Positions 12,943 through 32,000 of a DNA stretch of 32,000 bases are shown piece after piece. A program made the position numbers and the translations under genes. Below the pieces are notes generated by a model, which had not been told where the DNA came from, searched no databases, and saw nothing but the letters and a program-made list of their open reading frames with translations. The DNA is from Candidatus Lokiarchaeum ossiferum. Its GTDB lineage: Archaea > Asgardarchaeota > Lokiarchaeia > Sigyniarchaeales > Promethearchaeaceae. The DNA lies in contig CP104013.1 of assembly GCA_025839675.1 (NCBI GenBank), positions 4,950,001-4,982,000 of the forward strand, read 5' to 3'. Position 1 is the stretch's first letter; each line of letters starts with the position of its first letter.

Positions 12943-12979
12943 CATGCATTATATGTTCCTAATTCTTGAGGAAAAGAAT

Positions 12980-14947
12980 ATGCCTTCAGTACAAAAATTT
13001 CCCATTGACATGAGCGGGTATAAACCCGTAATTTTGGATTTATCACAACCTGATTTATCAAACGATGAAGTTAATCAACTTGAAAAAAATGTACAATTGG
13101 CTCGCGATGCCATCATTTTCTTTACTGCTTATGCTGGAGTAAAGCGGCTGGGTGGTCATACTGGTGGAGCCTATGATATTGTTCCTGAAATGTTAATTGC
13201 AGATAGTTTAAAGATAGGAAGAAACAAAATCCATCCTGTTATTTTTGACGAAGCAGGACATCGGGTAGCTGTGCACTATTTACTCGCCGCTTTAAATGGC
13301 TTTATGCCTCTTGAAGATTTACTTCACTACCGCCAAGCTTACTGTTGGCTTCCAGGCCATCCTGAAAAAGGATACACTCCAGGGATTGAGTTTAGTTCTG
13401 GGAGATTAGGACATATGTGGTCCTTTGTTAACGGCGTTGCTCTGGCTAATCCGACTCAGAAAATACTCATGATGGGCAGCGATGGATCCCAACAAGAAGG
13501 TACTAATGCTGAAGCTGCTCGATTTGCAGTCACCAATAACCTTGAAGTGAAATTATTCATCGATGATAATGATATGACCATAGCGGGACATCCTAGCAAT
13601 TATTTAGCAGGATATAATATTGATAGAACCCTAAAAGGCCATGGGATGTCTTCGGAAGTATGTGAAGATCCAGAAAATATCCGATTGCTCTATCGACATA
13701 TGGTGCGTTGTATTACTACTAAGGGGCCGGCTGCTGTTGTGTGTAAAAGAAAGATGGCACAAGGCATCCCTGGAATTGAAGATACTTCCAAGGGTCATGA
13801 TGTTATTCCAGAAGAAGCTGCTATTGCCTATTTGACAAAGCGAGGATATACTAAAGCAGTGGAAATGATTCAAAATGCCGAAAAGGAAAAAGCAATCTTC
13901 GATTATTTAGGGTCTACAAAAGAATTTCGTAAACCTCGGGATAAATTCGGAAAAGTAGTGTGTGAGATTCTTGGAAAAATGACCTTAAAAGAACGGTTAC
14001 ATAAAGTTCGTGTAATTGATAATGATTTGCTCGGGTCATGTGGGCTTCATTTTGTAAAAAATGAGTTTCCTGAAGTGTTCATTTCTGGTGGAATTATGGA
14101 GCGGAATAATTATACCGTCGCGGCAGGGTTCGGATCCACTCCTGGACGCCAGGGAATAACTGCGACATTTTCGGCCTTTTTAGAGATGCTTCCGTCAGAA
14201 ATAACCATGGCGCGATATAATGATGCAAATGTTCTCGCTCACTTTTCCCATGCTGGAGTGGATTGGATGGCTGATAACAATTGTCACTTTGGTATTAATA
14301 ATTTCTTTGCCGACAATGGGATTGCGGAAAAAGATACCACTCGACTTTATTTTCCAGCCGACTATCATCAAATGGGGGCGATTGTAAAAGAAGTGTTTAA
14401 CGATCCTGGTTTGCGTTTTGTCTTTTCAACACGATCCCCTTCTCCTTTTATCTTGGATGAGAATGGAAATCGATTCTTTGATATAAAGAATGGTTATAAG
14501 TTCAAACCTAAAAAAGATGAATTAATCCGAGAAGGGACGGATGGGTATATTGTTGCTTATGGTGAAATGCTTCATCGATGTTTGGATGTTGTTGAATCGC
14601 TGAAAAAGGAAGGTAAATACGTGGGATTGATTAATAAACCGACGCTTAATAAAGCTGACAAAGCCATGATGGCGAAAATCGGGGAAGCTCCATTTATTTT
14701 GGTGGTTGAAAGCCAAAACTATAAAACAGGCCTTGGGGCTCGGTTCGGGACTTGGTTGCTTGAATCAGGTTATTCTCCTGTTTATCAACATCTTGGGGTT
14801 ACAAAATTGGGTGTGACTGGTCTTTGGGAACAAATTGACCATCAAGGCTTGGATCCTTACAATATTGCAAAAGTTACCCGAAGATTAGTATTAAATACCA
14901 AGAAAGGCAAGGGCAAAGATCTCACCCAATGGTTAAAAAATGAGTAA
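12980..14947 (+). CDS. Transketolase-family protein, N and C halves fused, divergent
   Basis: GGHTGGAYD, LPGHPE and the ThDP motif region GSDGSQQEGTNAEAARFAVTNNLEVKLFIDDNDMTIAG (GDG...N pattern) are present. The Pyr-domain sequence GIMERNNYTVAAGFG...FSHAGVDWMADNNCHFG aligns to THDS..GEDGPTHQ with substitutions. Confidence 0.75.
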   Translation: MPSVQKFPIDMSGYKPVILDLSQPDLSNDEVNQLEKNVQLARDAIIFFTAYAGVKRLGGHTGGAYDIVPEMLIADSLKIGRNKIHPVIFDEAGHRVAVHYLLAALNGFMPLEDLLHYRQAYCWLPGHPEKGYTPGIEFSSGRLGHMWSFVNGVALANPTQKILMMGSDGSQQEGTNAEAARFAVTNNLEVKLFIDDNDMTIAGHPSNYLAGYNIDRTLKGHGMSSEVCEDPENIRLLYRHMVRCITTKGPAAVVCKRKMAQGIPGIEDTSKGHDVIPEEAAIAYLTKRGYTKAVEMIQNAEKEKAIFDYLGSTKEFRKPRDKFGKVVCEILGKMTLKERLHKVRVIDNDLLGSCGLHFVKNEFPEVFISGGIMERNNYTVAAGFGSTPGRQGITATFSAFLEMLPSEITMARYNDANVLAHFSHAGVDWMADNNCHFGINNFFADNGIAEKDTTRLYFPADYHQMGAIVKEVFNDPGLRFVFSTRSPSPFILDENGNRFFDIKNGYKFKPKKDELIREGTDGYIVAYGEMLHRCLDVVESLKKEGKYVGLINKPTLNKADKAMMAKIGEAPFILVVESQNYKTGLGARFGTWLLESGYSPVYQHLGVTKLGVTGLWEQIDHQGLDPYNIAKVTRRLVLNTKKGKGKDLTQWLKNE

Positions 14948-18560: not shown

Positions 18561-19115
18561 TTATTCGAAATTCTGGTCTGCTTCAATCCGCTTTGCATTC
18601 TCATAACATTGACGGGCGATTTCCATAAACATTTCTTCCACATTTGTCCCATCCTTGGCTGAAGTTTCAATGTGGGTTGCATTTAATCGACTGGTTAAAT
18701 CCTCTGCTTCTTCCCGATTAACGCGCCTCTCTTCCTCAGCAATGTCTATCTTATTTCCAATTACGATCAATGGTATATTTCCAGCTGCATTTTGCATGGT
18801 GGTGGTCCATCCTGGTAATCTAAGTAATGATTCGGGCATTGTGATGTCATATACTCCAATGGCCCCTTGACTTCCCTTAAAATAAATGTTTCGCATCGTG
18901 GAAAATTGCGCTTGGCCGCCAATATCCCAAATCATCAGACGGATATCGTTTCCCTCAATTTCAACATCTTTAATAAGGAAATTCGTTCCGATTGTCTGTT
19001 TGAGATCTAAGGAAAAAGAATGTTTAATAAACCTGAGAATTAAACTGGTTTTTCCAACATTTTGGCTTCCGAATAAGGGTATTTTGAACTTGTATTGTTT
19101 TCGCTGTGTGCTAAT
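18561..19115 (-). CDS. Rab/Ras-like small GTPase (184 aa if initiated at ATT 19115)
   Basis: My own translation upstream of the listed ATG (18935) stays in frame: ISTQRKQYKFKIPLFGSQNVGKTSLILRFIKHSFSLDLKQTIGTNFLIKDVEIEGNDIRL-MIWDIGGQ. That gives G1 GSQNVGKT, a switch I Thr, G3 WDIGGQ, G4 GNKID and G5 ETSAK. There is no in-frame ATG/GTG/TTG between the upstream TAA and 18935. ATT at 19115-19113 is preceded by GAGGAG with a 6-nt spacer. Confidence 0.8.
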   Translation of the reverse strand: MSTQRKQYKFKIPLFGSQNVGKTSLILRFIKHSFSLDLKQTIGTNFLIKDVEIEGNDIRLMIWDIGGQAQFSTMRNIYFKGSQGAIGVYDITMPESLLRLPGWTTTMQNAAGNIPLIVIGNKIDIAEEERRVNREEAEDLTSRLNATHIETSAKDGTNVEEMFMEIARQCYENAKRIEADQNFE

Positions 19116-19121
19116 GGTTAT

Positions 19122-19127
19122 CTCCTC
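19122..19127 (-). promoter_or_regulatory. Shine-Dalgarno-like GAGGAG upstream of the candidate ATT start of the GTPase
   Basis: The minus strand reads TATGAGGAGATAACCATTAGC. Other genes in the window (translin, ATPase, transketolase) show comparable GGAG-type SD sequences at similar spacing. Confidence 0.4.
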
Positions 19128-19322
19128 ATAATTTCTGTTTGTGCTGTAATCATCAATAGTTAGATTTTTTCTATAATATATTTATTTTCTTTAGTAGTAT
19201 TAAATAATCCATTTTCTAACCCTTCTGTCAATAAAAGCTTTTTTAAAAGAGGATTGAAAATAGTTGGATATTAAATAGTAGTTTAAAAAAGAGCTTATTT
19301 TGTTCCCTTCATGTTTCTTCTT

Positions 19323-20210
19323 TTAGTTCTCATGCAACAAATCAATTTCGATCAATTTAATCTCATCCACATCGCGAATTTGGCGTAATCGTTCCTTGGT
19401 CTCGTCAAAATTATCAAAATTCAGCGGATTGAGATAAACCTCATAGATACATTTTCCCCCCTGTTGACAAATCCCAGAAGTGTAAACAAACGGAAGTTGA
19501 AGTTCTTGAAAGACTATACTAATTTCCTTCAATGTATCTGGACTTAATTGCCCATTGAAAATAACCGCAATCTTCACTACCCGTTCTTGATCGTAAGGGA
19601 TAATATCTACCTTAAAATTTTCTTTCCGTTTTTGAAAAACAACAAAATAATTTTTGCGGGTTTCAATAAAAGATTCGAGATCTCGGACTATCTTGATAGG
19701 TAGGTGTAAAGATTGCTTCTTGCGAAGATCTTGAAAGGGAACCAATATTCCGTGGGTTTGGGCTTGTCCAATGGCAAAAAACTTAGCCAATATTTCAAAT
19801 TCCTTGGTGAGGTATTCGAACTCTCCCTTAATTTCTTCCTCGTAATTTAACGGGGGATTATTGATATAGAGGGCTTTATAAATCTCTTTTCGCTTTTCCT
19901 TAATGATTTTCACAAATTCTTTGAATTCATGTTCATAGGAATTAAAATTGGGGGATTCTTCTTCAATTATCTTGGTTATCATTACCATCTCTTGCTTTCC
20001 CCGCGCCCACGCAGAAGGGATCATGAAGAAATAATTTGCGGTATTAAGTTCGGCAGAAAACGCATGGGTGAAAAAGCCCGGAGTTGCTGCATCCATCAAC
20101 CGTTTAATCTGGTTAATATCATCCTCTGACACAATATCCGTAATATTTTTTGGGACGCTGTAAAGGATGTCGGGTCCGATGATGGGATTGAAGTAAGTTA
20201 AGATGAGCAT
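19323..20210 (-). CDS. Longin-like (FLCN/NPRL2/DENN-type) domain protein with a C-terminal ACT-like region
   Basis: The N-terminal LTYFNPIIGPDILYSVP resembles NPRL2 FFSEFHPTLGPKITYQVP. FFMIPSAWARGKQEMVMITKII resembles FLCN [21 protein letters not shown]. Residues ~211-290 (VKIAVIFNG..PDTLKEISIVFQEL..FVYTSGICQQ..CIYEVYLNP..TKERLRQI..EIKLIEI) read as a beta-alpha-beta-beta-alpha-beta unit. Confidence 0.55.
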   Translation of the reverse strand: MLILTYFNPIIGPDILYSVPKNITDIVSEDDINQIKRLMDAATPGFFTHAFSAELNTANYFFMIPSAWARGKQEMVMITKIIEEESPNFNSYEHEFKEFVKIIKEKRKEIYKALYINNPPLNYEEEIKGEFEYLTKEFEILAKFFAIGQAQTHGILVPFQDLRKKQSLHLPIKIVRDLESFIETRKNYFVVFQKRKENFKVDIIPYDQERVVKIAVIFNGQLSPDTLKEISIVFQELQLPFVYTSGICQQGGKCIYEVYLNPLNFDNFDETKERLRQIRDVDEIKLIEIDLLHEN

Positions 20211-20344
20211 TTTAGACCGGATTTGAAGTTAGTGATATAATTAAATAAAGAAGCTTTTAAAGCTTTTATTTCTGGAATATTTCCTATTCTTGGTGAAAAT
20301 GGGATAATACATTATCGACATAAACAATTACTCCCCTTTCTATG

Positions 20345-20354
20345 AAATAAAAAG
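20345..20354 (-). terminator. Oligo-T tract (CTTTTTATTT) downstream of the gelsolin-like gene
   Basis: It lies 33-42 nt after the stop at 20387 on the minus strand. This suggests the gelsolin gene is its own transcription unit. Confidence 0.3.
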
Positions 20355-20386
20355 ACGCAATTTCGATTTTTCCTATCGTTCATGTC

Positions 20387-20665
20387 TTATTTCAAACTTT
20401 TTGTAATTTCCTCCATTATAGGCGAAGGAAACTCTGCTTGATTGTTCCGATATTGGTAATTGGAGTATTGAATCTTTTTTATGAGTAAATTTTTCTTCGC
20501 CATTTCAATCGCTTGAGGTTTGGATTTTTTTCCCGACCAAAAATAGATCCGATTCTGTGTTTGATCGACCACTATTGCGATATCATCGTTTAGCAATTGT
20601 TCCGTCTGTATCCACCCCTTTTGTTGAAATTTATACACTTTCAGCTTATTTTCTTTCGTTTCCAT
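20387..20665 (-). CDS. Single-domain gelsolin/villin-like protein
   Basis: KVYKFQQKG...LLNDDIAIVVDQTQNRIYFWSGKKSKPQAIEMAKKNLLIKKI follows the gelsolin-repeat signature (LFQVKG...L.sgDcFILD.g..IyvW.G..S...E..kA...a..I). Confidence 0.7.
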   Translation of the reverse strand: METKENKLKVYKFQQKGWIQTEQLLNDDIAIVVDQTQNRIYFWSGKKSKPQAIEMAKKNLLIKKIQYSNYQYRNNQAEFPSPIMEEITKSLK

Positions 20666-20780
20666 TTACTTGTTCACATCAAATAACCATTGTTTGTGTT
20701 TATGAGTTTTCCTACTTGCTCCATTCTTCGAAATTACTTCAAGTGAATAAAGCGGAAAACCAAAAGTTATTAATTATTTA

Positions 20781-21062
20781 ATGCTTTTCAAAAATATAAA
20801 TATCTGCGCAATGGGATGCATCGTGAAATTCCGACTCGTTTTTGAAACCACAACTAAGCATGGAAAGAAAGTGCAATTGAAGTTTAAAGTCCCCCCCTCC
20901 AAACATTTGGGCTTGATGAATTTTCTAAAGATCGCTATGGAAGGCGATGAGGACATTCAATTTGCTGTTGAAAAAATCTCTGAAGATAAACATGACCTCA
21001 GTAAAGCTAAGGGGACTTTCCGCTTAGTGCAAGATGATTCTGACGAATCGATCACCGATTAA
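20781..21062 (+). CDS. Hypothetical small acidic-tailed protein
   Basis: The ORF is 93 aa, or 83 aa from MGCIVKF at 20811. It is predicted beta-rich with one helix, and I recognise no family. It is kept as coding because it sits directly upstream of the transferase gene, ending 19 nt before that gene's preferred start at 21082 (29-nt overlap with the track ORF at 21034). Its codon usage resembles that of its neighbours. Confidence 0.4.
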   Translation: MLFKNINICAMGCIVKFRLVFETTTKHGKKVQLKFKVPPSKHLGLMNFLKIAMEGDEDIQFAVEKISEDKHDLSKAKGTFRLVQDDSDESITD

Positions 21063-21081
21063 CCCCTTTCTGGGATTTTTT

Positions 21082-21723
21082 ATGCCTTCTCGTTTCCGCC
21101 TCCGTAAAATTTTTGCCCCTGTAGTCAACTTTATGGCCAAAGGCTTTATCAAATTACAAGTCACTCCTAATATTGCCACTCTTTTGATGCTTTTTTGTGC
21201 CTGTATGAGTGCTTTGTCTTTGATTTTATGGGAGAGTTTACTATGGTATGGGATTTGGATTTTTATTACTGGGTTGATGGATGGTGTCGATGGGGCTATA
21301 GCTCGACTCACTGGTCGAAAGAGCAAATTTGGGGCGTTTTTTGATTCTTCCATGGATCGCTTGTCTGAAGGAATAATTTATTCCGCCTTATTAGTAAAAA
21401 TGGATTTGCTGTTTGATATTCCTGAAATTTGGAGCGTTCTTTTAATTGGGATGTGTTTATTATTTTCTTTTCTAATTAGCTACACTCGAGCCAGGTTAGA
21501 ATTAATTGGAAAAAGGGAAAAAATTAACTTTGATTCTAATATTGGTTTAATGGGTCGTTCGGAACGATTGTTTTACTTATTTCTCTCAAGTATGATTGTG
21601 GGATTTTTTCATATTGGCCTTCTTATTTTTATAATCACTTATTTCGTTTTAATTTTGACTACCGCCATCTATCGTTTCATAAAATATCAACAATTCATCG
21701 AGTCTATTGAAAAAAAGTTATGA
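21082..21723 (+). CDS. CDP-alcohol phosphatidyltransferase family; archaetidylinositol-phosphate-synthase-like
   Basis: The complete motif D-G-x2-A-R-x8-G-x3-D-x3-D is present in DGVDGAIARLTGRKSKFGAFFDSSMDRLSEG, with ~6 TM segments. The FGAF.DS..DR..(D/E)G variant resembles AIP/PIP synthases. Start moved from the track's 21034 to ATG 21082, which lies after the stop of the upstream ORF. Confidence 0.8.
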   Translation: MPSRFRLRKIFAPVVNFMAKGFIKLQVTPNIATLLMLFCACMSALSLILWESLLWYGIWIFITGLMDGVDGAIARLTGRKSKFGAFFDSSMDRLSEGIIYSALLVKMDLLFDIPEIWSVLLIGMCLLFSFLISYTRARLELIGKREKINFDSNIGLMGRSERLFYLFLSSMIVGFFHIGLLIFIITYFVLILTTAIYRFIKYQQFIESIEKKL

Positions 21724-21759
21724 TATTACTTGACATCCAATTTCAGAGGAGTGTTATTT

Positions 21760-22818
21760 TCATTCTGCTTTCGTTTCAAAAAATAATTCGATTCCCATCA
21801 AAGAGAATAGATCCTTAACATTCTCTCCCGTTTTTGCCGAAGTTTCAATAAATAAGCAATTTAATTCTTTTGCGAGAAGTCTTCCTTCTTCTTCAGTTAC
21901 TTGTCTTTCTTCAACAAGATCGCATTTATTGCCAACAATCACAATCGGTGCATCATGAACTATGCAACGAATATCTTCTAGCCAATATTTTATCCGTTCT
22001 TCAAAAGTGTTTCGTCTTGTTATATCATATAAAATAAACGCGGCTCGTGCTCCAGAATAATATGTTTTTCGTACCCGATGAAAAATTTTTTGTCCTGCAA
22101 TGTCCCAAATTATGAATTCTACGACTTTATTTTTTAATCCCTGTAAATTATTGGTCCGATTGGATATGGAAAATCCCAATGTTGGTTTATACTCTTTTTG
22201 ATATCGATTGGTGACAAATTGCTGAATTAAACTCGTTTTTCCTACGGCTTGATCCCCTAAAACACAAAATTTATACACCAATTTTTCATCTTCTGTACAT
22301 TGAAACGAGATTTTCTCCTCAAAATTCTGAAATTTACTCTTTGAAATTGTATGTGTTTTTTCTCCCACATTTAGATTGGGGATAGAAAGAGCTACTTTTT
22401 CTTCAGAATTGTCCATAAGTTGAACTATTTTTTCTGTAATCAAGAAAATGTTTGGCATTTCATCATTTATCTCTGGATCGTGTTCATATACACAGAGTAA
22501 AATTGCTTTTGATCCAGCCTCTGTGAATATAAATTTATGATCTTCTGTTTCAAACATTCCTGTACCGAAAGATCCAGGATATTCAAGTGAGATTTGTTTT
22601 AGTGTTGATTCTACACTATTCGCAACTGATCCGTAAATATTGTGTTCTGTATTTGTATTTTCCTCGTGTTTTATCTGGTTGAGAATTAAGGTTCCATCAC
22701 GTTCAAATAAATGGATCTCCAATAATCTATTTGAGGATGTTTTGAAGAAGTTTTGGAAGAGAATAGTTAACTTTTCATTAATTTTTGACATTATCTTTCC
22801 CTTTTCTTGATGCATCAA
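21760..22818 (-). CDS. Roadblock/LC7 (MglB-like) domain fused to a Rab-like small GTPase
   Basis: Residues ~11-136 follow the Roadblock pattern (LLEIHLFERDGTLI ... GSVANSVESTLKQIS ... FETEDHKFIFTEAGSKAILLCVY). Residues ~181-345 form a complete GTPase: G1 GDQAVGKTS, G3 WDIAGQ, G4 GNKCD and G5 ETSAK. An alternative start is MSKINE at 22791. Confidence 0.8.
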   Translation of the reverse strand: MMHQEKGKIMSKINEKLTILFQNFFKTSSNRLLEIHLFERDGTLILNQIKHEENTNTEHNIYGSVANSVESTLKQISLEYPGSFGTGMFETEDHKFIFTEAGSKAILLCVYEHDPEINDEMPNIFLITEKIVQLMDNSEEKVALSIPNLNVGEKTHTISKSKFQNFEEKISFQCTEDEKLVYKFCVLGDQAVGKTSLIQQFVTNRYQKEYKPTLGFSISNRTNNLQGLKNKVVEFIIWDIAGQKIFHRVRKTYYSGARAAFILYDITRRNTFEERIKYWLEDIRCIVHDAPIVIVGNKCDLVEERQVTEEEGRLLAKELNCLFIETSAKTGENVKDLFSLMGIELFFETKAE

Positions 22819-23111: not shown

Positions 23112-23948
23112 ATGCAACAAATTATTTCAACCCAGATTCCCTTAAGTTCTAATGGAATTTTTAACAATCATAAACATTATCCTCCTCTTCATATTATCAT
23201 TCCTGCATATAATGAATCTCGTTCTATCATCTCAGTAATTAGGCGCATTGAATCATCTTTAATGTTGTATCCCTACCAATTTAGGATCACTGTCATTGAT
23301 GATGGCAGTTCTGACTCAACATATGAAATATTACAAAATTCCAATTTGAACATCTCATTGAAAAAAAATCATCAAAATCTTGGTAAAGGAAAAACTATGA
23401 GAAGGGGAATCTTACAGAGTAAAAAAGAAGAAATTGTTGTTATGATAGACGGAGATGGAGAACACATTCCAGAAGATATTTCTAGATTAATAGATCCCAT
23501 ATTGACAGGAAAAGCAGACTGTGTAATTGGTTCTCGTTTTTTACCAAGAAATTCAAGTATCACTTTATCGGGTTCCTATTTAAAAAACCAAAAGAAACAT
23601 AGCTATTTCCGTAAAGCAGGAAATAATCTCATTTCCTTCTTAATTTATACGTTTTTTAGAAGATGGATCACCGATTCTCAATGCGGGTTTAGAGCTTTTG
23701 CCCCTGATATCGCAAAACTTTATAAACCTACATATTCTGGTTTCGAAATTGAAACAGAAATGACTTTGTTTTATATACTCAACAACTTTAAAATTGTAGA
23801 AATACCGATCGATACTGGCTTGAATACTCGAGAATCCCATATGAATATCTTAAAAGATAGTATGAAAATTCTCTTTGTAATCCTGTCTCTGCGATTTAAG
23901 AAATTCGATAATGTATATCAAAAAATTCGAACAAAAATATTAAAATGA
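23112..23948 (+). CDS. Glycosyltransferase family 2, dolichyl-phosphate hexose synthase-like
   Basis: IIIPAYNESRSI, ITVIDDGSSDST, NLGKGKTMRRG, MIDGDGEH and CVIGSRF are typical of the DPM1/Alg5/AglD-like GT2 layout. Confidence 0.8.
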   Translation: MQQIISTQIPLSSNGIFNNHKHYPPLHIIIPAYNESRSIISVIRRIESSLMLYPYQFRITVIDDGSSDSTYEILQNSNLNISLKKNHQNLGKGKTMRRGILQSKKEEIVVMIDGDGEHIPEDISRLIDPILTGKADCVIGSRFLPRNSSITLSGSYLKNQKKHSYFRKAGNNLISFLIYTFFRRWITDSQCGFRAFAPDIAKLYKPTYSGFEIETEMTLFYILNNFKIVEIPIDTGLNTRESHMNILKDSMKILFVILSLRFKKFDNVYQKIRTKILK

Positions 23949-25115
23949 TTCACTTTCTTCGATTATATTTTGAAAGATATCAATTCTCTCAAACCATGTC
24001 ATTTCTTTTTTCTTTTTCAAAATATTCGATTTAATCTTTTCGTAAATTCCTTCATTTTGCAATAAATAATTAACCGCATAGACTATTTCACAAGAATTTC
24101 CGGGTTTAATTAAAACCCCTGTTTTTTCATGAACTATCAATTCTTTAATTCCCCCGACATTACTACCGATAACTGGGATATTAAATCCGAATGCTTCAAG
24201 CAACACATTTGGACAGCCATCATATAAAGAAGGAATTATTATCAAATCCGCTTGTCTATAATATTTCACAATTTCTTTACTTGGTAAATAACCTCGACAT
24301 TTTATCCGAGTAATGTTATTTTCTTTAATATATTTTAATATGGAATGATATAATGGCCCATCTCCGACAATATTGAATGTTAAATCTATATGTTTTTGAG
24401 AAATTTCATGGAAAGCATTTATTAAAATTTCACTTCCTTTTAATTCCGTTAGTGACCCTACAAAAAGTATTGATTTTATTCCCTTGCGAGATAAAATAGG
24501 GGGATTCTCATCCATTTTTTCAATTCCATTAGGACTATGGGTTGATTTCGTGTTTTCTATATTGTAATATTTGGAAACGACTAAAGATTCGAATTTTGAC
24601 ACCGATATTATTTTTTCAGCCTTTTGAAACAATCTTTTTTCTAAAAAATAAATTAGAAAGTAAAAAAGTTTAAAGTAAAACTGGTAAGGCGAATCTAAAG
24701 AATTATTTGAAATTTTAGCAATATAATTGCAGCCTCCATTTTTTATTGAATAGGGTATGTTTTTTGGTGAGTAATATATCGCCGGGGATATTATGAATAT
24801 ATAATCTGGTTTTTCAGTTCTTAAATACTTTGAAATTTTTATTGAATGAACCAGATTTTGAAATAGAGGTACTTTTGGAACTTGCATTCGATAAATTTTC
24901 CACTTGGAACCAATTTCAACATAATCCTTTTTAAAAAAGGGGAGTAGTATTTCTCTTACTGGAGAAATATTAAAGGAATGCATACGATCCCCCGTTATAA
25001 TTGAAATTTCGTGTTTATATTTTAAATTTAAGTATTTAGCTAATCTATAAGCACTTTTTCCTGTACCTTTAGAGTGTGGGGGAAAATCTCCTGATAGAAT
25101 TACTATTTTTGCCAT
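23940..25115 (-). CDS. Glycosyltransferase family 4 (GT-B)
   Basis: PSLYDGCPNVLLEAFGFNIPVIGSNVGGIKELI is the GT4 C-terminal signature. The gene's 3' end overlaps the convergent GT2 by 9 nt. Confidence 0.8.
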   Translation of the reverse strand: MAKIVILSGDFPPHSKGTGKSAYRLAKYLNLKYKHEISIITGDRMHSFNISPVREILLPFFKKDYVEIGSKWKIYRMQVPKVPLFQNLVHSIKISKYLRTEKPDYIFIISPAIYYSPKNIPYSIKNGGCNYIAKISNNSLDSPYQFYFKLFYFLIYFLEKRLFQKAEKIISVSKFESLVVSKYYNIENTKSTHSPNGIEKMDENPPILSRKGIKSILFVGSLTELKGSEILINAFHEISQKHIDLTFNIVGDGPLYHSILKYIKENNITRIKCRGYLPSKEIVKYYRQADLIIIPSLYDGCPNVLLEAFGFNIPVIGSNVGGIKELIVHEKTGVLIKPGNSCEIVYAVNYLLQNEGIYEKIKSNILKKKKEMTWFERIDIFQNIIEESESF

Positions 25116-25120
25116 TATTT

Positions 25121-26236
25121 TTACTGTATCCTCTTATAGATGATCAATAGTTTTTTGATTACTTCTTTCGAAGAATAATTTAGTTCAATATCATTTCTCG
25201 CACTTTCACGCATTTTTTCTGCAAAATTTTGATCATTGATATATTTTTCCATATTATTGGATAAATTTTTCACAGAATCTACTTGAAATACCAATCCATT
25301 TCTGTGATTTTTAATTAATTGCATATTTCCTGCAATGTTTGATACTATTACTGGAATTCCAAGGGCCATTGCTTCAAGTAAAGAATTACTTAACCCTTCA
25401 CTTTCCGAAGGTAATATAAAACAGTCAAAACTTGAATATATTTCATGAGCATTGGTTTGGAATCCTTTAAGTTTTATAACATTCTCCAATTGTTTTGATT
25501 TTATATATGAATCAATTTGATTATATAATGTGCCTAATCCATATAATTGGAGTGTAATTTCACAATTTTTCTGTAGAACAATCTCAAACGCTTCAAGCAT
25601 CAAAAAGATATTCTTGACCTTCTCAAGTCTTCCTACATAACCAAAACGGGTTATTTTTTTCATTTTTTTTATGTATTTAAAGTCGTCCAGATTAATTGCA
25701 TTTGGAATCAAATGGATTTTTTCGGTAGGAACATTGTAGTTTCTTTGTAAATCTTCTTTTATTCTATTATTCAATGCCTGAAAATGATTGGAATTTTCGA
25801 TCAAAAATTTTACAAAAATTTTATCTAGAGCTTTAATCAAATGATTTTTAGTTCTTGTATTGATCAATTGATAAATTTCACCACTGATTTTAGTCATTAT
25901 TTGGGTTTTTACAAACATTTTGAAGAATATACATGGAATTATAGTAATCCCTAAAATATGAGGATTTAAAATTGTGATTTCTTGTTTCTTATTGATGGAA
26001 AATAATCTGAAAAAGGTTTGGATAACAAAAAGAATTGAATTGCTTGAAAGCTGATGAATAATGATATTATTGGAATGTGGGATATACTTGGTATATTTTG
26101 TGATTAAATCAATCTTGATTTCCTTGTGGTTTGCATAAGTTGGAAGCAAACGTAAAATTTGTTTCTCCGCTCCACCAATTCTTAAATTCTTGCCCAAATT
26201 TTCATCCGTATTTGGAATTAATATTACGATATGCAT
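25121..26236 (-). CDS. Glycosyltransferase family 4 (GT-B)
   Basis: PSESEGLSNSLLEAMALGIPVIVSNIAGNMQLI is the GT4 signature. There is a 5-nt gap to the next gene. Confidence 0.8.
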   Translation of the reverse strand: MHIVILIPNTDENLGKNLRIGGAEKQILRLLPTYANHKEIKIDLITKYTKYIPHSNNIIIHQLSSNSILFVIQTFFRLFSINKKQEITILNPHILGITIIPCIFFKMFVKTQIMTKISGEIYQLINTRTKNHLIKALDKIFVKFLIENSNHFQALNNRIKEDLQRNYNVPTEKIHLIPNAINLDDFKYIKKMKKITRFGYVGRLEKVKNIFLMLEAFEIVLQKNCEITLQLYGLGTLYNQIDSYIKSKQLENVIKLKGFQTNAHEIYSSFDCFILPSESEGLSNSLLEAMALGIPVIVSNIAGNMQLIKNHRNGLVFQVDSVKNLSNNMEKYINDQNFAEKMRESARNDIELNYSSKEVIKKLLIIYKRIQ

Positions 26237-26257
26237 TGCGTGAAACTCCTAGGCATT

Positions 26258-27655
26258 TCAGATGGAAAAATCTAAATTGGAAATAATGCATTTTCGTTTT
26301 CCAGAAGCCAGAGAAGGAATAGATTTAACCTCATTAAAAGATACATTCAGTTGATGATCTAAGTCCTTTTTTATGATTTTTATAATTTTAGTTTTTAGTT
26401 TTTTTAATTTTTCTTGGGTGGAATTCTGATTAAATACATAATTTATTTGAATATGATCCAATCTATCTTGTATGACCTGAAAATCTAAAATTGATGTCTG
26501 ATGGTAGAAAAGGAATGTAAAAAATAAACTATGTGCGAGTTTTCCTGAAGGTGTCGGCATAAAATCTGATTTACGACCGTGTATTGTCTTCAAACGTTTT
26601 AAATTTCTTCCACATTTACATTTATGATTTGAAAACTCACCAATATCTTCATTTTGATATCTTATAAATGGAAACGTGTAATTAACTAAGTCTGTGAGAA
26701 TAATATGCCCAATTTCCGAGTTTTCTTTTTCCTTTTTTATTTCAACATGTCGTATCTCTTCACTAATATGTAAACCATCTTTATATTTGCATTCATGTGC
26801 AATACTCGATATCTCTCTACTCCCATAGCTATTAAATACATTCGTTTGGAACATTCTTTCAATAGTGTTTCTCATTTCGGGGTATAAATTTTCTGCGGCA
26901 GATTGAATATTAAATTTAAAATGACTGCAATCAAAGTTATTTTTTTCCAAAAATTGAGCAAAAGTATTAAGTGCATTTGCGTAGCCTATTAATATTTTTG
27001 GCTGGAACTTGGTAAGTTTATTGTAAAAAGATTGCATTTTATTTTGATCCATACTAAAAGAATTTAAAAAAATCTCTCCAGATACTAATTCGCGAAATCC
27101 TTGAAGTTTTCTATCCTTAAAATTCATATAATCTTTATGCGATCCCCAAATATATGCCTTTTTTTCCCATAAGTGCCAATCACACCATTGAAAGTGTCTT
27201 AATCGATCAGCAAATGTCCAAGTATGATAATATCTATCTTGAAAAAAATTCAAGGGGTTTCCTGTGGAACCACCTGTGGAATTTTGATATTCAGGAGGAT
27301 AAGCAATAAATTTGGAGTGCAATTTGTGAGAATTTTTCTGAATTTCGCTTTTTGTTATTATAGGAAGAATTTCTTCAAAAGATTCAATATCTTTAATATT
27401 GGAAATTCGAATTTTTAATCGCTCAATAAGTTCTTGATAAAATGGATTATGTTTAGAACAGAAACGCAATAATTTTACTATTTTATCATATTTTAATTCA
27501 TATATTTCTTGTTCTGAATAATATTGGGTTTGATTTAAAATGTTGAGATATTTCAAATAATTTTGCTTTTTAAAAAGATTATTATTATAGAGGTGCATCA
27601 TTTTCTTCCTCAAATTGGATTGAATGAGATCGAAGCTTGAATTATTTGAAACCAT
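26258..27655 (-). CDS. Adenylate-forming ligase of the PaaK/CapK/F390-synthetase family
   Basis: NSTGGSTGNPL (the T/SSG-S/T-TGxP AMP-binding loop), YGSREIS (YGxxE) and FPFIRYQNEDIG (the RYrtgD motif) are present. Confidence 0.7.
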   Translation of the reverse strand: MVSNNSSFDLIQSNLRKKMMHLYNNNLFKKQNYLKYLNILNQTQYYSEQEIYELKYDKIVKLLRFCSKHNPFYQELIERLKIRISNIKDIESFEEILPIITKSEIQKNSHKLHSKFIAYPPEYQNSTGGSTGNPLNFFQDRYYHTWTFADRLRHFQWCDWHLWEKKAYIWGSHKDYMNFKDRKLQGFRELVSGEIFLNSFSMDQNKMQSFYNKLTKFQPKILIGYANALNTFAQFLEKNNFDCSHFKFNIQSAAENLYPEMRNTIERMFQTNVFNSYGSREISSIAHECKYKDGLHISEEIRHVEIKKEKENSEIGHIILTDLVNYTFPFIRYQNEDIGEFSNHKCKCGRNLKRLKTIHGRKSDFMPTPSGKLAHSLFFTFLFYHQTSILDFQVIQDRLDHIQINYVFNQNSTQEKLKKLKTKIIKIIKKDLDHQLNVSFNEVKSIPSLASGKRKCIISNLDFSI

Positions 27656-27791
27656 TTTTGATTATTCTAAATTAAGTTATGGACTTAAAATTTATTAGAT
27701 GAATTTTATTTCACAATTCAAAAAAAAAAGATACTATCTTAAAATATCCTGGATTGAACCAAATGAGAAATTTCAGATTCATATTACAAGA

Positions 27792-28799
27792 TTACGAGGT
27801 TATGTGAATACTATTCAAATATTTTATATTGGGAATTAACCATCCAACTTGGAATTTTTTTTTTTTTAAGTATTTTACAGCCAATAGCAATAAATTTTCT
27901 TTAAACAAGCAAAAGAAAGGCTTTAGTAAAAAAGAATTGATAAATATGAAAATATAACTTTCCAATCTTTTGGATTGGATTGCGATCGATGCAAAATAAA
28001 ATTTATTGGCTAATTTTAAACTATTATTCATTAATAATCTAAAGGCTAAATTATTTAATTGATAAGAGAGAATTTCAGGATATTTGTTATATTGAATATA
28101 ATTTTTTATTAGAATTTTCAAAATACCCCTCACTTTTTTAAAATAATTTGATGAAATACTTTGATTTTGAATATAATAATTAACTAAATGTTCATTAACG
28201 AATTTTATTTTATATTTCTGAATTAATCTTATCCACAAATCCCAATCTTGTGCTGAATCTAAGTTATCATCAAATCCATTTACTTCATGGATATATTTTG
28301 TTCTAATCAAGGGGTAACTACAGCTGCCTATAAAATTAGTTTCTAATATTTTTTTTTTGGGGTTTTTTATTTGGGCAGGCAATTTTTTCTCATAAATAAT
28401 TTGGTTTGATTCGAGTTTTTTGATAAAACCGCAATAAACTATGCCTATTTCAGGAGAATTCATATTGAAAATTTGATATTGCTTCATGAGTTTATTTGGG
28501 AAAAATTCATCATCATCATCCAAAAATGCAATATATTTTCCCTTAGCTAGTTTTATTCCTAAATTCCTTGCTGCTGGTGCTCCATGTTTACCTTTTAAAC
28601 TTTGGAAAATGATGTTTTTTTCTTTAAAAATGCCTAATTCTTCTTGTACACTATAATCTGAATGATCATCTATGACAATTATTTCAGTAGATGGATAATT
28701 TTGACGAATTACGCTTTTTATGGCTCGTTTCAATTGTTTAAACCTGTTATGGGTCGGAATTATAACTGATATAAGTGGATATTCCATGAGAATTTCCAT
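27792..28799 (-). CDS. Glycosyltransferase family 2
   Basis: ISVIIPTHNRFKQLKRAIKSVIRQNYPSTEIIVIDDHSD, APAARNLG and AFLDDDDEF (the DxD motif) are present. The track start is TTG 28823. ATG 28799 (MEILMEYPL) is preferred. Confidence 0.85.
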   Translation of the reverse strand: MEILMEYPLISVIIPTHNRFKQLKRAIKSVIRQNYPSTEIIVIDDHSDYSVQEELGIFKEKNIIFQSLKGKHGAPAARNLGIKLAKGKYIAFLDDDDEFFPNKLMKQYQIFNMNSPEIGIVYCGFIKKLESNQIIYEKKLPAQIKNPKKKILETNFIGSCSYPLIRTKYIHEVNGFDDNLDSAQDWDLWIRLIQKYKIKFVNEHLVNYYIQNQSISSNYFKKVRGILKILIKNYIQYNKYPEILSYQLNNLAFRLLMNNSLKLANKFYFASIAIQSKRLESYIFIFINSFLLKPFFCLFKENLLLLAVKYLKKKKFQVGWLIPNIKYLNSIHITS

Positions 28800-28905
28800 T
28801 ACCCTATTTATTTCTTTATTCAAAATTAATTTTTTTCATTTATTACTTGAACTACTACTTGACATCGTTTTACTATTTATTTTCCCATGAATTGATCCCA
28901 AACAA

Positions 28906-30405
28906 TTATTTCATAGAAAACTCATCTTTTAATCCTTTTTTATAATTTTTTAAGTTGAATAAATCCAAAAAGAATGAAATATCATCCCTATTAATAAAAT
29001 GGCATATTATTAAGCTTATAATAAAAAAAATAAATGATATTAGCGAAGATAATACAAGAAGAATGAGTTGTGACTCAATAACTTCGATTAATAAGTATTT
29101 CAGTAGATAACTGATTAAAAATGTCAAGAAAGAAAGAGGTAATATGAAAAATAATTTGTTTTCACCTTCAATACCAAAATATTTTTTAGAAAAATATCGA
29201 TAAAATGCATAATCAATGATATTGAACGTCAAATTTAAAAAACAATAACCAATTACTCCAAATCCAAGCAAATTTATCCCCCATATGTTTTCCGGAATTA
29301 TGATCACAATTAGGATTAAAAAACACACACTTCTTATGGAAAGATATCTTGAAATTACTCCTTGTTTCTTCCCTGCATACAAATGCTTATTGTAAGGCCG
29401 ACTCAAACTGCTGAATAATGGAATAAAAACTAAGATTTGCAAAATTGGGATGGAATCTATATAATTTGGTAAAAAAATTTGGAAAGCGATTTCTGCATTT
29501 AATAATGTGAGGATTGCCACCGCACAATAAAAAATCGCAGAATATTTTTCGATTTTCTGTGTCATTTTTTGAATTTCTTTGTATTTATTGTTGACAAACC
29601 ATTTCGCAAAATAACTCTCGTATATTACACCGATCGATAGTGTCACGGTGGTTAAAGTTACGATTATAAATGATTTGACGAAAAAATAATAAGCAAATTG
29701 TTCTGTTCCATAAAAGTGATCAATTATTAAATTTCCAATATTATCATTGAAGATTAGAATTAAAGATGTAAAAATGAGTGGTTTAGTTTCTTTCAACAGC
29801 TGGAAAATTCTACTTTTAGAGATTTTCGTTCGAGTTCTTTCTCCTTTAGATATGTAAAGTGTAAAAAATAGATTAATTCCAGCAAATAATAGTGATACCG
29901 CACCATATACTATTAATGGGTTCGAAAATTTGTTTAAATTGATCGAGATAATTGTTTTTACTATTGCGTTCAAAAAACCAATTACAAAACTTGGAATTTC
30001 GGCTTTATATATTTTCAATTTTGCTCTGAGGTGAGTATTTACAACAATTGAATATTTTGTTATTAATTCAGTTAAAGAAATGAGCAGGAAATATCCTTTA
30101 TATTGAAAATCAATTAAGAAAATGAAAAATAAGAGAGAAATAAATGATAAAAATATAATGGACAATTTAATAAACATAAAATTTGAATAATAAGATTCAA
30201 AATTGGAATCTCCACTATGTTGAATATAAATGGATTCAATTCCAATTGATAAGAACATAGTGAATATTCCAATATAACTCGAAACTTCTCCAGTAACTCC
30301 CATTAATTCTAATGACAAGTATTTTGCAAAAAAGTAGGCCGCAAAGATGTTTAGAAACTGAAGTCCTACCTGAAAAATCATTCTAATTATAAATTTATCC
30401 TTCAT
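28906..30405 (-). CDS. Polysaccharide/oligosaccharide flippase (Wzx-like, MOP superfamily)
   Basis: The protein is ~500 aa and almost entirely hydrophobic, with a dozen or so predicted TM segments by eye. The N-terminal FAKYLSLELMGV resembles the PST-family AR.L.pe.fG motif. It is embedded in the glycosyltransferase operon. Start moved from the track's 30477 to ATG 30405, which avoids a 64-nt overlap with the upstream gene. Confidence 0.7.
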   Translation of the reverse strand: MKDKFIIRMIFQVGLQFLNIFAAYFFAKYLSLELMGVTGEVSSYIGIFTMFLSIGIESIYIQHSGDSNFESYYSNFMFIKLSIIFLSFISLLFFIFLIDFQYKGYFLLISLTELITKYSIVVNTHLRAKLKIYKAEIPSFVIGFLNAIVKTIISINLNKFSNPLIVYGAVSLLFAGINLFFTLYISKGERTRTKISKSRIFQLLKETKPLIFTSLILIFNDNIGNLIIDHFYGTEQFAYYFFVKSFIIVTLTTVTLSIGVIYESYFAKWFVNNKYKEIQKMTQKIEKYSAIFYCAVAILTLLNAEIAFQIFLPNYIDSIPILQILVFIPLFSSLSRPYNKHLYAGKKQGVISRYLSIRSVCFLILIVIIIPENIWGINLLGFGVIGYCFLNLTFNIIDYAFYRYFSKKYFGIEGENKLFFILPLSFLTFLISYLLKYLLIEVIESQLILLVLSSLISFIFFIISLIICHFINRDDISFFLDLFNLKNYKKGLKDEFSMK

Positions 30406-30413
30406 ATTATCAT

Positions 30414-31487
30414 CTATTTTTGCAAAGTTTCTCTGAATATTTTCTTTAGTTGATTTCCTATTTTTTTTGGCGTACAATACTGAAGATATGTTTTATATCC
30501 TTCATGAGCAATTTTGGTTCTCAATATTGAATTTGTATATAAAGTAAGAATTGAATTTGCAAGTGATTCTGGATCTTCCGCTTTACAGAGTATTGCATTA
30601 TGTCCGTTTGTGAATAACTCCCGAATTGCTGGGTGATTGGATGATATAATTGCCTTTTCCAATGCTATTGCAGCATAAATCTTATTTGGAATTACAATCT
30701 GAGACTTAATAGAATTACCAAAAATACCCAAAATGATATCCGCTCTATTCAATTCATTGATCAATTGAGTTTCTTGCATGAAAGGAATTATTTCTACATT
30801 GTTTAAATTATTTTTTAACTTGAATTCAAGCATTTCTCTGAACAGAATCTTTTTTGGATTTCCGCCGATTATTTTAAAATGGATTTCAGTTTGATTTAAC
30901 AAAATTTTTGCAGCTTGGAATATAATCGGTATTCCTTGTAATGGAATATAGCTACCAAAGAAAGTAACTTGAAAATGTTGAGTTTTTGATTTTGAAATGC
31001 TATTTTCTTTTTCATAATCAGAACCAACGAAAACTCTGTGAATTTTTGATTTTGGTACTTGAATTTCTTCTGAAAAATAATTTCCATGGATCTTGGTGTC
31101 CGATATTAGTACATCGGCCATATTAAACGATAGGTTTTCAACAAATCGCAAGATATTTCCACGTAGACTATGTTTCGGAAACATATGGTAGTCGTTTACT
31201 TTAGTATTATATTGTGATATCAGCGGGTCATAAACAATTTTCTTTCTCTTTACACATTTGAGCAAAAGTGCTATGGGCATTGCTAAAATACTTGCTGGAA
31301 ATCCAATAAATATGATGTTATATTCTTCATTTAATGCTTTTTTAAGAAGCAGCCATTTTCTTTTGAAACTCCTTACATTGAAAATGTTACAATGAATTAC
31401 TTCGATTGAGTTTGCTTGTAATCCTTTCAAAATTATTCTATTTCTTGAATAATTTTGATGATAGGAACCAAAAAATAGTGCTTTCAC
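30414..31487 (-). CDS. GT-B fold glycosyltransferase (GT4-like)
   Basis: The C-terminal VIPNKIYAAIALEKAIISSNHPAIRELFTNGHNAILCKAEDPESLANSI matches the donor-binding half of GT-B enzymes. The N-terminus is MKALFFGSYHQNYSRNRIILKGL. It has a 4-nt ATGA overlap with the upstream gene. Confidence 0.6.
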   Translation of the reverse strand: MKALFFGSYHQNYSRNRIILKGLQANSIEVIHCNIFNVRSFKRKWLLLKKALNEEYNIIFIGFPASILAMPIALLLKCVKRKKIVYDPLISQYNTKVNDYHMFPKHSLRGNILRFVENLSFNMADVLISDTKIHGNYFSEEIQVPKSKIHRVFVGSDYEKENSISKSKTQHFQVTFFGSYIPLQGIPIIFQAAKILLNQTEIHFKIIGGNPKKILFREMLEFKLKNNLNNVEIIPFMQETQLINELNRADIILGIFGNSIKSQIVIPNKIYAAIALEKAIISSNHPAIRELFTNGHNAILCKAEDPESLANSILTLYTNSILRTKIAHEGYKTYLQYCTPKKIGNQLKKIFRETLQK

Positions 31488-31996
31488 TCCCTCACATCCA
31501 TATTATTTCGCTTATTCTCAATTTTCTGATACCAGAAATAAATTACTCCTAATATTATTGCAGACAATAAATAGAAAGGGAGGGCATGAATATCATCATA
31601 AAATGGATTTCGTTCATTAGTTTCATTTTCATTGAAAACGATTTCTTCCATTTCTCCTTGAATTACTTCAATATTTCGTATAATTATAAACGGATCCCCA
31701 AGATCGAGCGTTGTTTTTATATTTCCTAAGTATATACGGTTTCTTAATTCAGACGATGTCTCATAAAAACTGTTTCGCCAATTTATGAATTGCATTTTTT
31801 TTGCATTAATTTCAGGTTCTCTTATGTAACAATAAGATTGGTCTGAATTAATTTGTATACTTTCAATACTTGTAAACAAATGAGTTTTATTTTGATTCTC
31901 GAAAGAAATTACAGAATCCAATGCATTCTGGAAATTAATGCCAATTTGAGTAAAGAAACTTTCAATATAATAGCTAATTCCGGTAGACAAATTCAT
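31484..31996 (-). CDS. Hypothetical protein with a C-terminal TM anchor, first visible gene of the glycan operon
   Basis: The ORF is 170 aa with the TM segment LPFYLLSAIILGVIYFWY near the C-terminus. I recognise no family. The frame is still open for the 4 nt upstream of the ATG, so the gene may extend beyond the window. Confidence 0.45.
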   Translation of the reverse strand: MNLSTGISYYIESFFTQIGINFQNALDSVISFENQNKTHLFTSIESIQINSDQSYCYIREPEINAKKMQFINWRNSFYETSSELRNRIYLGNIKTTLDLGDPFIIIRNIEVIQGEMEEIVFNENETNERNPFYDDIHALPFYLLSAIILGVIYFWYQKIENKRNNMDVRE

Positions 31997-32000
31997 TTCT

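Follow-up and report, generated by a model that had tools for sequence, protein, structure and literature searches.

Does a run of eukaryotic signature proteins (ESPs) encoded side by side in an Asgard archaeal genome represent a functional unit, or are such genes only neighbors? The question is raised by a 4.3-kb segment in Candidatus Lokiarchaeum ossiferum, at positions 18561-22818 of a stretch of 32,000 nucleotides (nt) of contig CP104013.1 (positions 4,950,001 to 4,982,000; hereafter, the window). The segment contains six open reading frames (ORFs): genes 1 to 3 (a Rab-like small GTPase, a longin protein and a gelsolin-domain protein) and gene 6 (a Roadblock-GTPase fusion) on the minus strand, and genes 4 and 5 (a protein of 83 amino acids (aa) and a CDP-alcohol phosphatidyltransferase, hereafter the transferase) on the plus strand. 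An earlier note, made from the sequence alone, described six consecutive genes within 4.3 kb in this order and on these strands, four of the six being co-oriented on the minus strand, and proposed that they form one linked module of GTPase switch, regulator, membrane lipid and actin. The ORF calls confirm the arrangement, and all six family assignments were upheld by profile searches and by Foldseek searches with AlphaFold2 (AF2) models of genes 2 and 6.

Chance alone can produce an ESP 'island' in one genome, and such islands need support from comparison. L. ossiferum encodes 258 ESPs, which amounts to 5% of its genes (PMC9834061), and under random placement about 0.44 runs of at least four ESPs in six genes are expected per genome. 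The ESP clustering in this single genome is not beyond chance, and the question therefore turns on conservation. Here we show that two parts of the segment are conserved among Lokiarchaeia, one consisting of the longin and Rab-like GTPase genes, and the other of the gelsolin and 83-aa genes with the transferase gene. The proposed module thus holds in part: two sub-partnerships are conserved, but the six-gene unit is not, and the Roadblock-GTPase is never retained. The reading that we prefer, with about even confidence, is that a segment collinear across Lokiarchaeia holds two independent gene partnerships and one unrelated neighbor. The folds and motifs, the gene orders and the probable production of four of the proteins are observations; GAP (GTPase-activating protein) activity, the GTPase on which it would act, control by a ligand and any actin or lipid role are proposals drawn from them.

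Linkage of the longin and GTPase genes across Lokiarchaeia

The comparison set consisted of 60 loci from species-representative genomes and ten loci obtained by protein look-up (denoted by L followed by a number), the ORFs of which were scanned with the window proteins. Orthologs of the gene 1 GTPase scored 194-320 bits, against at most 62 bits for paralogs. An orthologous GTPase gene lies downstream of the longin gene, on the same strand, in 10 of the 12 species-level loci and, additionally, in L066 and L067. This linkage spans five deep lineages, with pairwise longin identities of 30-41%. In four loci (L003, L012, L066 and L067), the GTPase gene comes immediately after the longin gene, at a distance of 61-88 nt, and the other neighbors of the pair differ after rearrangement, including thymidylate synthase and a proteasome subunit.

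The longin domain of this family, recognizable by its GP and (W/I)ARG motifs (see below), is also joined to GTPases elsewhere. In three loci, it is fused to an Arf-like GTPase (L014:4606-5568; L015:794-1780; L016:4205-5167); the L014 fusion gene is convergent with the transferase gene and takes the place of the Roadblock-GTPase of the window. In two further loci, a GP/WARG longin gene lies directly upstream of a gene for a 311-aa GTPase of the Gtr1/RagA type (Pfam, 5e-23; L040:553-2518 and L047:1958-3968). The two genes overlap or are 29 nt apart, and the arrangement looks like an operon of an NPRL2/FLCN-like and a Rag-like gene. These fusions and operons provide independent support for a functional tie between longin and GTPase. 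Asgard-type longin and Rag-like genes were also found on contigs DATKTP0100... (L017, L040, L052, L058) that are labeled as the bacterium 'Candidatus Deferrimicrobium sp.'; these are probably Asgard contigs that were binned wrongly.

Association of the gelsolin, 83-aa and transferase genes

The gelsolin gene and the 83-aa gene are divergent neighbors in all nine longin-ortholog loci that cover this region, as well as in L064, L065 and L068. The 83-aa gene is the hub of this partnership: it always adjoins the gelsolin gene, the transferase gene or both, in different layouts. In loci of the window type, the transferase gene is downstream of the 83-aa gene; in L064, it follows the gelsolin gene, and two small genes stand in tandem on the opposite strand; L065 and L068 have only the gelsolin and 83-aa genes paired; and in L069 and L070, the transferase gene is divergent from the 83-aa gene and no gelsolin gene is present. 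The small genes at L064:5765-6303 are a tandem duplication of the 83-aa gene.

In the intergenic region between the divergent genes (20666-20810 in the window), a putative bidirectional promoter, a core of about 45 nt is conserved in seven window-type genomes, L014 included, with 29 invariant columns in their alignment. Two TATA-like boxes lie in this core, ATA-TTATAT and one that is AT-rich (AATAATTAATAA in the window). We considered the core as a family-wide feature and rejected this, given its absence from loci with other layouts.

The gene 3 protein alone matches the Pfam Gelsolin model with an E-value of 0.0074, below the cut-off, and its orthologs do not match this model. A profile built from eight orthologs retrieves villin (4.6e-14), the 94-aa gelsolin-like chain 7c2f_B (8.4e-6), gelsolin (4.5e-4) and the Loki 2DGel (2e-3), which bears out the gelsolin assignment. 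About four C-terminal transmembrane helices are predicted from hydropathy in the orthologs from P. syntrophicum, L003, L014, L064, L065 and L068 (Table 1). In L. ossiferum, Harpocratesius, L006 and L009, the protein is a soluble form.

What had been noted as a small unknown ORF proved to be a real, conserved gene. The family of the 83-aa protein includes 128 small proteins, among them a subfamily of about 100 aa, and every source-named match is from Promethearchaeota; the orthologs in related loci match with E-values of 6e-32 to 8e-15. Neither Pfam, NCBIfam nor the Protein Data Bank (PDB) yielded a match to the 83-aa protein, and a PDB-sequence profile search with its alignment was empty.

Gene 5 matches the Pfam CDP-OH_P_transf family (PF01066) at 1e-12. 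The best of ten NCBIfam models is the archaetidylinositol phosphate synthase (archin_ph_syn; 2.4e-36, 125.4 bits, full-length), and the motif DGxxDGxxAR-x8-G-x3-D-x3-D is complete (DGVDGAIARLTGRKSKFGAFFDSSMD in the translation). The L. ossiferum motility preprint lists gene 5 (GNAMCCOK_04292) as one of three 'PIPS' and as expressed, and Asgard profilin has been reported to be sensitive to phosphatidylinositol phosphates.

Taken with the layouts described above, this suggests a partnership in which the gelsolin and 83-aa genes would be transcribed divergently from a compact shared promoter region, with the transferase gene following the 83-aa gene, probably in an operon. The three products probably act together at the membrane, linking actin regulation to the synthesis of inositol phospholipids, and in most lineages the gelsolin protein itself would be anchored there.

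Partnership or common descent

The possibility of a random juxtaposition kept in no related genome, raised by the earlier note, is not borne out: a grouping of five of the six genes is found again in Promethearchaeum, in Harpocratesius and in Lokiarchaeia that are more distant. The order transferase gene, 83-aa gene and then, on the opposite strand, gelsolin, longin and Rab-like GTPase genes is found in P. syntrophicum, three other Promethearchaeum species, L006, L009 and L014, the last with a longin protein 36% identical to that of the window. The six genes do not stand out as a conserved unit beyond the background synteny.

The principal alternative is that these genes are neighbors by descent only, in a slowly rearranging segment where no gene works with another. 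The collinearity extends to genes for ribulose-phosphate epimerase, translin, a sugar epimerase, a cytidylyltransferase, a P-type ATPase and phosphoribosyl pyrophosphate synthetase, and in P. syntrophicum the collinear block takes in housekeeping genes g09 to g17, as it does in part in L014 and L003. Much of the linkage could therefore be accounted for by descent alone. This weighs against the two partnerships, and so do several other observations: the GTPase gene is not near the longin gene in Harpocratesius (L005) and L013; no GTPase is encoded within 8 kb at about 30 of the 49 paralogous longin loci; the longin and GTPase genes are separated, in most relatives, by two unrelated genes on the opposite strand; the L. 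ossiferum gene 3 product is not among the gelsolins listed as co-immunoprecipitated with actin in the motility preprint; and the 125.4 bits of gene 5 are below the NCBIfam equivalog cut-off of 180 bits. The intervening opposite-strand pair, itself conserved, encodes a DUF7347/ArsR-like helix-turn-helix protein (about 310 aa) and a membrane protein (about 150 aa) (L001:10915-12328; L006-L011, L014), and the L. ossiferum window lacks both genes.

Descent alone would also agree with the chance expectation for ESP runs given above and with what is known of gene order in Asgard archaea, where most ESP genes lie outside conserved neighborhoods (Liu et al., bioRxiv 10.1101/2020.10.19.343400) and the GTPase genes of strain MK-D1 are generally not in operons with Roadblock or longin genes (Tran et al., PMC10933270). 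Separate promoters and the oligo-T tracts that the earlier note saw between the genes would fit independent transcription. Runs of T5 to T8 indeed follow the stop codons of genes 1-3, but the tracts are weak evidence because runs of T6+ or A6+ are common in this AT-rich DNA (4.75 per kb).

What speaks for partnerships over descent alone is the behavior of the genes where the segment is broken. After rearrangement, the block splits into the longin-GTPase pair, on the one hand, and the 83-aa gene with the gelsolin gene, the transferase gene or both, on the other hand. Both partnerships persist in the rearranged loci (L003, L012, L064 to L070), whereas the housekeeping neighbors change; two different arrangements tie the transferase gene to the 83-aa gene or the gelsolin gene; independent fusions to GTPases, and operons with them, exist for this longin domain; and the divergent promoter core is conserved. 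We consider descent without any partnership somewhat unlikely.

The NPRL2-type longin protein

The ORF at 19323-20210 is 100% identical to NEF87_004254. Sequence searches assign it to no named family: there was no Pfam match at E-values up to 1, with the NPR2, Folliculin and DENN models unmatched, and no NCBIfam match, and a PDB-sequence profile search with the longin alignment returned only coiled-coil noise and neither NPRL2 nor FLCN. The family has 31 members, and all source-named ones are from Asgard archaea (Lokiarchaeia/Promethearchaeota and one partial sequence labeled Heimdallarchaeota).

The AF2 model, obtained with the family alignment as input, has a predicted local distance difference test (pLDDT) score of 82.8. 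It consists of an N-terminal longin domain of the b-b-a-b-b-b-a topology (E2-8, E12-19, H29-41, E45-50, E56-66, E72-82, H89-106), a helical linker and a C-terminal ACT/NikR-like domain (b-a-b-b-a-b). In a Foldseek search against the PDB, the full-length matches at ranks 1, 3, 8 and 24 belong to GATOR1 entries and involve chains of about 365 residues (E-value 1e-4); these entries were confirmed to contain NPRL2 by matching the NPRL2 sequence to them. The C-terminal domain matches the ACT domains of phosphoglycerate dehydrogenases and the metal-binding domain of NikR. The earlier description of gene 2 as a longin protein of the FLCN/NPRL2/DENN kind thus stands as regards the longin domain and NPRL2, the top-ranked full-length fold match; DENN identity was rejected, with no DENN hit.

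Two features of the longin domain point to a GTPase-activating protein (GAP). G12-P13 is invariant in the 20 aligned sequences and lies at the start of strand 2 (E12-19); in an hhalign comparison, this region aligns with residues 10-38 of NPRL2 (E-value 0.003, 29 columns), so that G12-P13 corresponds to G20-P21. A GP motif before or at the start of strand 2 has been reported to be specific to the GAP-type longins NPRL2, FLCN, SMCR8 and C9orf72 and absent from TRAPP, adaptin and DENND longins (PMC12290439). R70, in the sequence WARG, is invariant and located in the b4-b5 loop; the inspected paralogs keep it as (W/I)ARGKKEM. It is a candidate arginine finger, and we infer its equivalence to R78 of NPRL2. 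An invariant hairpin in the ACT-like domain, SGIC-x5-C-IYEVY (residues 241-260), contains invariant C248 and C254 and may be a metal or ligand site.

We propose that the longin protein acts as a regulator of the Rab-like GTPase whose gene lies just downstream of its own, the two genes having separate promoters in L. ossiferum, and that this role is most likely that of a GAP. The mechanism would rely on the invariant Arg70 beside Gly12-Pro13, as in NPRL2, FLCN and SMCR8, and the ACT-like C-terminal domain may make the GAP activity respond to a small ligand.

The case for a GAP is tempered by three points. The likeness of gene 2 to NPRL2 is structural only (template modeling (TM) score 0.35; 29 hhalign columns). 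Eukaryotic longin GAPs act as heterodimers, and the locus contains no second longin gene. Known longin GAPs target Rag and Arf GTPases, not Rab-like ones.

The protein could instead be a nucleotide exchange factor (GEF) or a scaffold, like the TRAPP, Mon1-Ccz1 and DENN longins. GEF activity prevails among longin and Roadblock platforms (PMC10933270), the longin-fold regulators of Rabs, to which the partner GTPase is similar, are GEFs, and a second longin subunit that would complete a GATOR1-like catalytic pocket is lacking. In contrast, the GP motif is the one that TRAPP, adaptin and DENND longins are reported not to have, the b4-b5 loop carries an invariant arginine, and NPRL2, not a GEF longin, ranks first among the full-length structural matches. 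On these grounds, a GEF or scaffold function appears unlikely.

The Rab-like GTPase

Gene 1 matches the Pfam Ras family (1.4e-45), and its closest solved relatives are Rab21, Rab30, Rab43 and Ypt1. Motifs G1 to G5 are complete (GSQNVGKTS, TIGT, DIGGQ, NKID and SAK), with the catalytic Gln kept in DIGGQ. The C-terminus (...EADQNFE) contains no Cys and lacks the prenylation motif of eukaryotic Rabs.

The likely start of gene 1 is a non-AUG codon, ATA at 19121 or ATT at 19115. No in-frame ATG, GTG or TTG lies upstream of the P-loop (18935-19181 region, minus strand), which is why GenBank contains only a 124-aa piece that begins with the ATG at 18935, at the G3 motif; RefSeq has 206 aa from the ATA at 19181. 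In five related genomes (Promethearchaeum, L006, L011), GAGGAG-AT[ACT]-NNN-ATT is conserved just 5' of a conserved YKFK, and more distant orthologs have an ordinary ATG at the aligned position. The alignment suggests a clade-conserved AUA, AUC or AUU start behind a Shine-Dalgarno-like element. That gene 1 is a truncated pseudogene was considered and rejected: the frame is open, the orthologs share the non-AUG arrangement, and the product probably corresponding to it (GNAMCCOK_04288) was detected in the proteome.

The Roadblock-GTPase fusion

Gene 6 matches Pfam Ras at 9e-48, with the G motifs GDQAVGKTS, DIAGQ, NKCD and SAK and a C-terminus (...FFETKAE) that contains no Cys. The AF2 model has a pLDDT of 82.2, and its best Foldseek matches are Rab8, Rab1 and Rab6 (TMt 0.9). 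Matches to Rabs dominate the search with the whole model; the Roadblock assignment comes from the elements of the model and from family profiles. The N-terminal domain has the a-b-b-a-b-b-b-a topology (H3-18, E23-30, E35-40, H47-70, E77-81, E85-92, E96-103, H108-126), and 8 of the 24 aligned family members, that is, gene 6 and its homologs, match Robl_LC7 (best, 8e-8) and one matches MAPKK1_Int; the gene 6 protein itself matches Robl_LC7 with an E-value of 0.16. The claim that the Roadblock domain is N-terminal to the GTPase was thus substantiated by the model fold and by these family members. An exhaustive search with the N-terminus (22294-22791) found 37 relatives; a word-indexed search returned nothing, not even the query, a sensitivity gap. 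Identification of gene 6 as a Rag was rejected: its Roadblock domain is N-terminal, the best matches of its G domain are Rabs, and Gtr1_RagA is not among the hits.

Gene 6 is convergent with the transferase gene, and none of the orthologous loci contains a Roadblock-GTPase. In P. syntrophicum, an unrelated 389-aa gene occupies its position, and the synteny with L. ossiferum stops exactly there. Gene 6 is a lineage-specific neighbor at a synteny break, and we see no tie to the other genes. A GTPase as a regular neighbor on the outer side of the transferase gene was rejected as well, being present in only 2 of about 7 genomes.

A single integrated module of all six genes, coupling a GTPase switch to membrane lipid and actin, is very unlikely: five of the six genes do occur together in Promethearchaeum, L006 to L010 and L014, a longin-Arf-like fusion occupies the Roadblock-GTPase position in L014, convergent with the transferase gene, and four products were detected together in the proteome, but the Roadblock-GTPase is missing from every orthologous locus, the sub-clusters lie apart in L064, L065, L069, L070 and L013, unrelated genes interrupt the block in most genomes, and there is no evidence of co-transcription.

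Expression of the gene products

In the proteome table of the L. ossiferum motility preprint, GNAMCCOK_04288 to GNAMCCOK_04291 were found in 14-16 of the 16 columns, with mean log2 intensities of 16.8 to 18.3, compared to 21.7 for actin. Consecutive numbering around the transferase, for which the pair GNAMCCOK_04292 and UYP47972.1 was verified, would make these products the Rab-like GTPase, the longin protein, the gelsolin-domain protein and the 83-aa protein. That this mapping of identifiers rests on consecutive numbering is a point against the two-partnership reading.

Gene calls and other features of the window

By exact look-up, the six genes are NEF87_004253 to NEF87_004258 (UYP47968.1 to UYP47973.1) of Candidatus Lokiarchaeum ossiferum. 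The starts of genes 4, 5 and 6 were refined to 20811, 21082 and 22791, respectively (Table 1). Rfam and tRNA scans of the window yielded no match.

Outside the segment, a 667-aa transketolase-like gene (12944-14947) falls where the GC content of the window is highest (0.39-0.41). The otherwise collinear P. syntrophicum locus does not have this gene, which may have been acquired. A low-GC (0.25-0.30) run of glycosyltransferase genes (23112-32000) begins exactly at the end of the synteny with P. syntrophicum and looks like a variable surface-glycan region.

Table 1. Genes and other features of the segment, with predicted membrane-anchored orthologs of gene 3 in related loci
Feature	Coordinates	Strand	Locus tag or remark
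Gene 1, Rab-like small GTPase	18561..19121	-	NEF87_004253
Gene 2, NPRL2-type longin protein, 295 aa	19323..20210	-	NEF87_004254
Gene 3, single gelsolin-domain protein, 92 aa	20387..20665	-	NEF87_004255
Divergent intergenic region, gelsolin gene / 83-aa gene	20666..20810		putative bidirectional promoter
Gene 4, conserved protein, 83 aa	20811..21062	+	NEF87_004256
Gene 5, CDP-alcohol phosphatidyltransferase, archaetidylinositol-phosphate synthase type, 213 aa	21082..21723	+	NEF87_004257 = UYP47972.1
Gene 6, Roadblock (N-terminal) and Rab-like GTPase fusion, 343 aa	21760..22791	-	NEF87_004258
Four-helix gelsolin orthologs	L001:9251-9952; L014:7097-7918; L003:14502-15206; L064:4874-5686; L065:4853-5707; L068:6019-6813		predicted helices

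Comparison with known systems

As the earlier note stated, each of the six families is already known from Asgard archaea, and the literature agrees. NPRL2-like longins have been described there (bioRxiv 10.1101/2020.10.19.343400; PMC12290439), and the architecture with Roadblock before the GTPase has been described for MK-D1 (PMC10933270). The longin-GTPase and gelsolin/83-aa/transferase pairings and the four-helix, membrane-anchored gelsolin appear to be undescribed in the papers searched: no description of the pairings was found in this incomplete coverage of the literature, and transmembrane forms are absent from the Asgard gelsolin papers searched.

Gene 2 shares with NPRL2, FLCN and SMCR8, and with the Asgard longins of the 'FLCN/SMCR8 type' (PMC12290439), a longin fold at its N-terminal end, in which the GP motif falls in the b1-b2 loop or where b2 begins. 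It has a conserved Arg that would lie near this motif, as in NPRL2, FLCN and SMCR8, and gene 2 is also genomically tied to a small GTPase. It differs from NPRL2 and FLCN in that it has no sequence-family match, that its C-terminus is ACT/NikR-like instead of the NPRL2 C-terminal domain or a DENN domain, that no partner longin is encoded nearby, and that the linked GTPase is Rab-like and not a Rag or Arf.

The closest parallel at the level of gene order is a conserved Asgard operon that encodes a LAMTOR1-like Roadblock protein, a Rab-like GTPase and a DENN protein (Liu et al., bioRxiv 10.1101/2020.10.19.343400). In both cases, a Rab-like GTPase gene is conserved beside that of a candidate regulator from the longin/Roadblock superfamily. 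However, the regulator in the window is of the NPRL2 type, with an ACT-like domain and no DENN Pfam hit, and a LAMTOR1-like gene is absent; furthermore, the pair is restricted to Lokiarchaeia as sampled, and its two members are usually under separate promoters or have further genes between them.

In the second partnership, gene 3 resembles the Asgard single-domain gelsolins (Thor ProGel; 7c2f_B) and 2DGel in its gelsolin-homology domain of about 90 aa, with similarity at the profile level, whereas its orthologs in six lineages add about four predicted transmembrane helices. Gene 5 resembles the archaetidylinositol phosphate synthases and the bacterial phosphatidylinositol phosphate synthases, with the complete motif, full-length matches to both NCBIfam models and predicted membrane helices. 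It differs in its score, which falls below the equivalog cut-off, and it is one of three paralogs in the genome, so that its assignment to inositol phosphate is tentative.

Gene 6, like Rag/Gtr, MglA-MglB and the Roadblock-GTPases of MK-D1 (PMC10933270), joins a Roadblock domain to a small GTPase, and dimerization through the Roadblock domain is plausible. In contrast to Rag/Gtr, the Roadblock domain is N-terminal and the G domain is Rab-like, with NKxD as opposed to HKxD in the Rag-like genes of L040 and L047.

Implications

Asgard genomes encode dozens of small GTPases, as well as dozens of longin and Roadblock proteins. Gene order rarely shows which regulator fits which GTPase (PMC10933270), and the question which GTPases partner the GP-motif Asgard longins has been posed explicitly (PMC12290439). 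The longin-GTPase pair, linked across deep lineages and with both products apparently made in the cultured organism, offers one concrete, testable pairing. The association of the gelsolin, 83-aa and inositol-lipid-synthase genes, together with the four-helix gelsolin, provides an entry to the question whether lipid control of actin regulators predates eukaryotes.

In its most far-reaching form, which we regard as quite unlikely, the proposal is that the longin protein is a ligand-controlled GAP for the neighboring GTPase, an archaeal counterpart of the nutrient-sensing switches built on longin GAPs in eukaryotes, such as GATOR1-Rag and FLCN-Rag, and that the membrane gelsolin, the 83-aa protein and the lipid synthase are a prokaryotic link of actin regulation to phosphoinositide-type lipids. 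If this is true, two hallmark control circuits of eukaryotes would already be wired in Lokiarchaeia.

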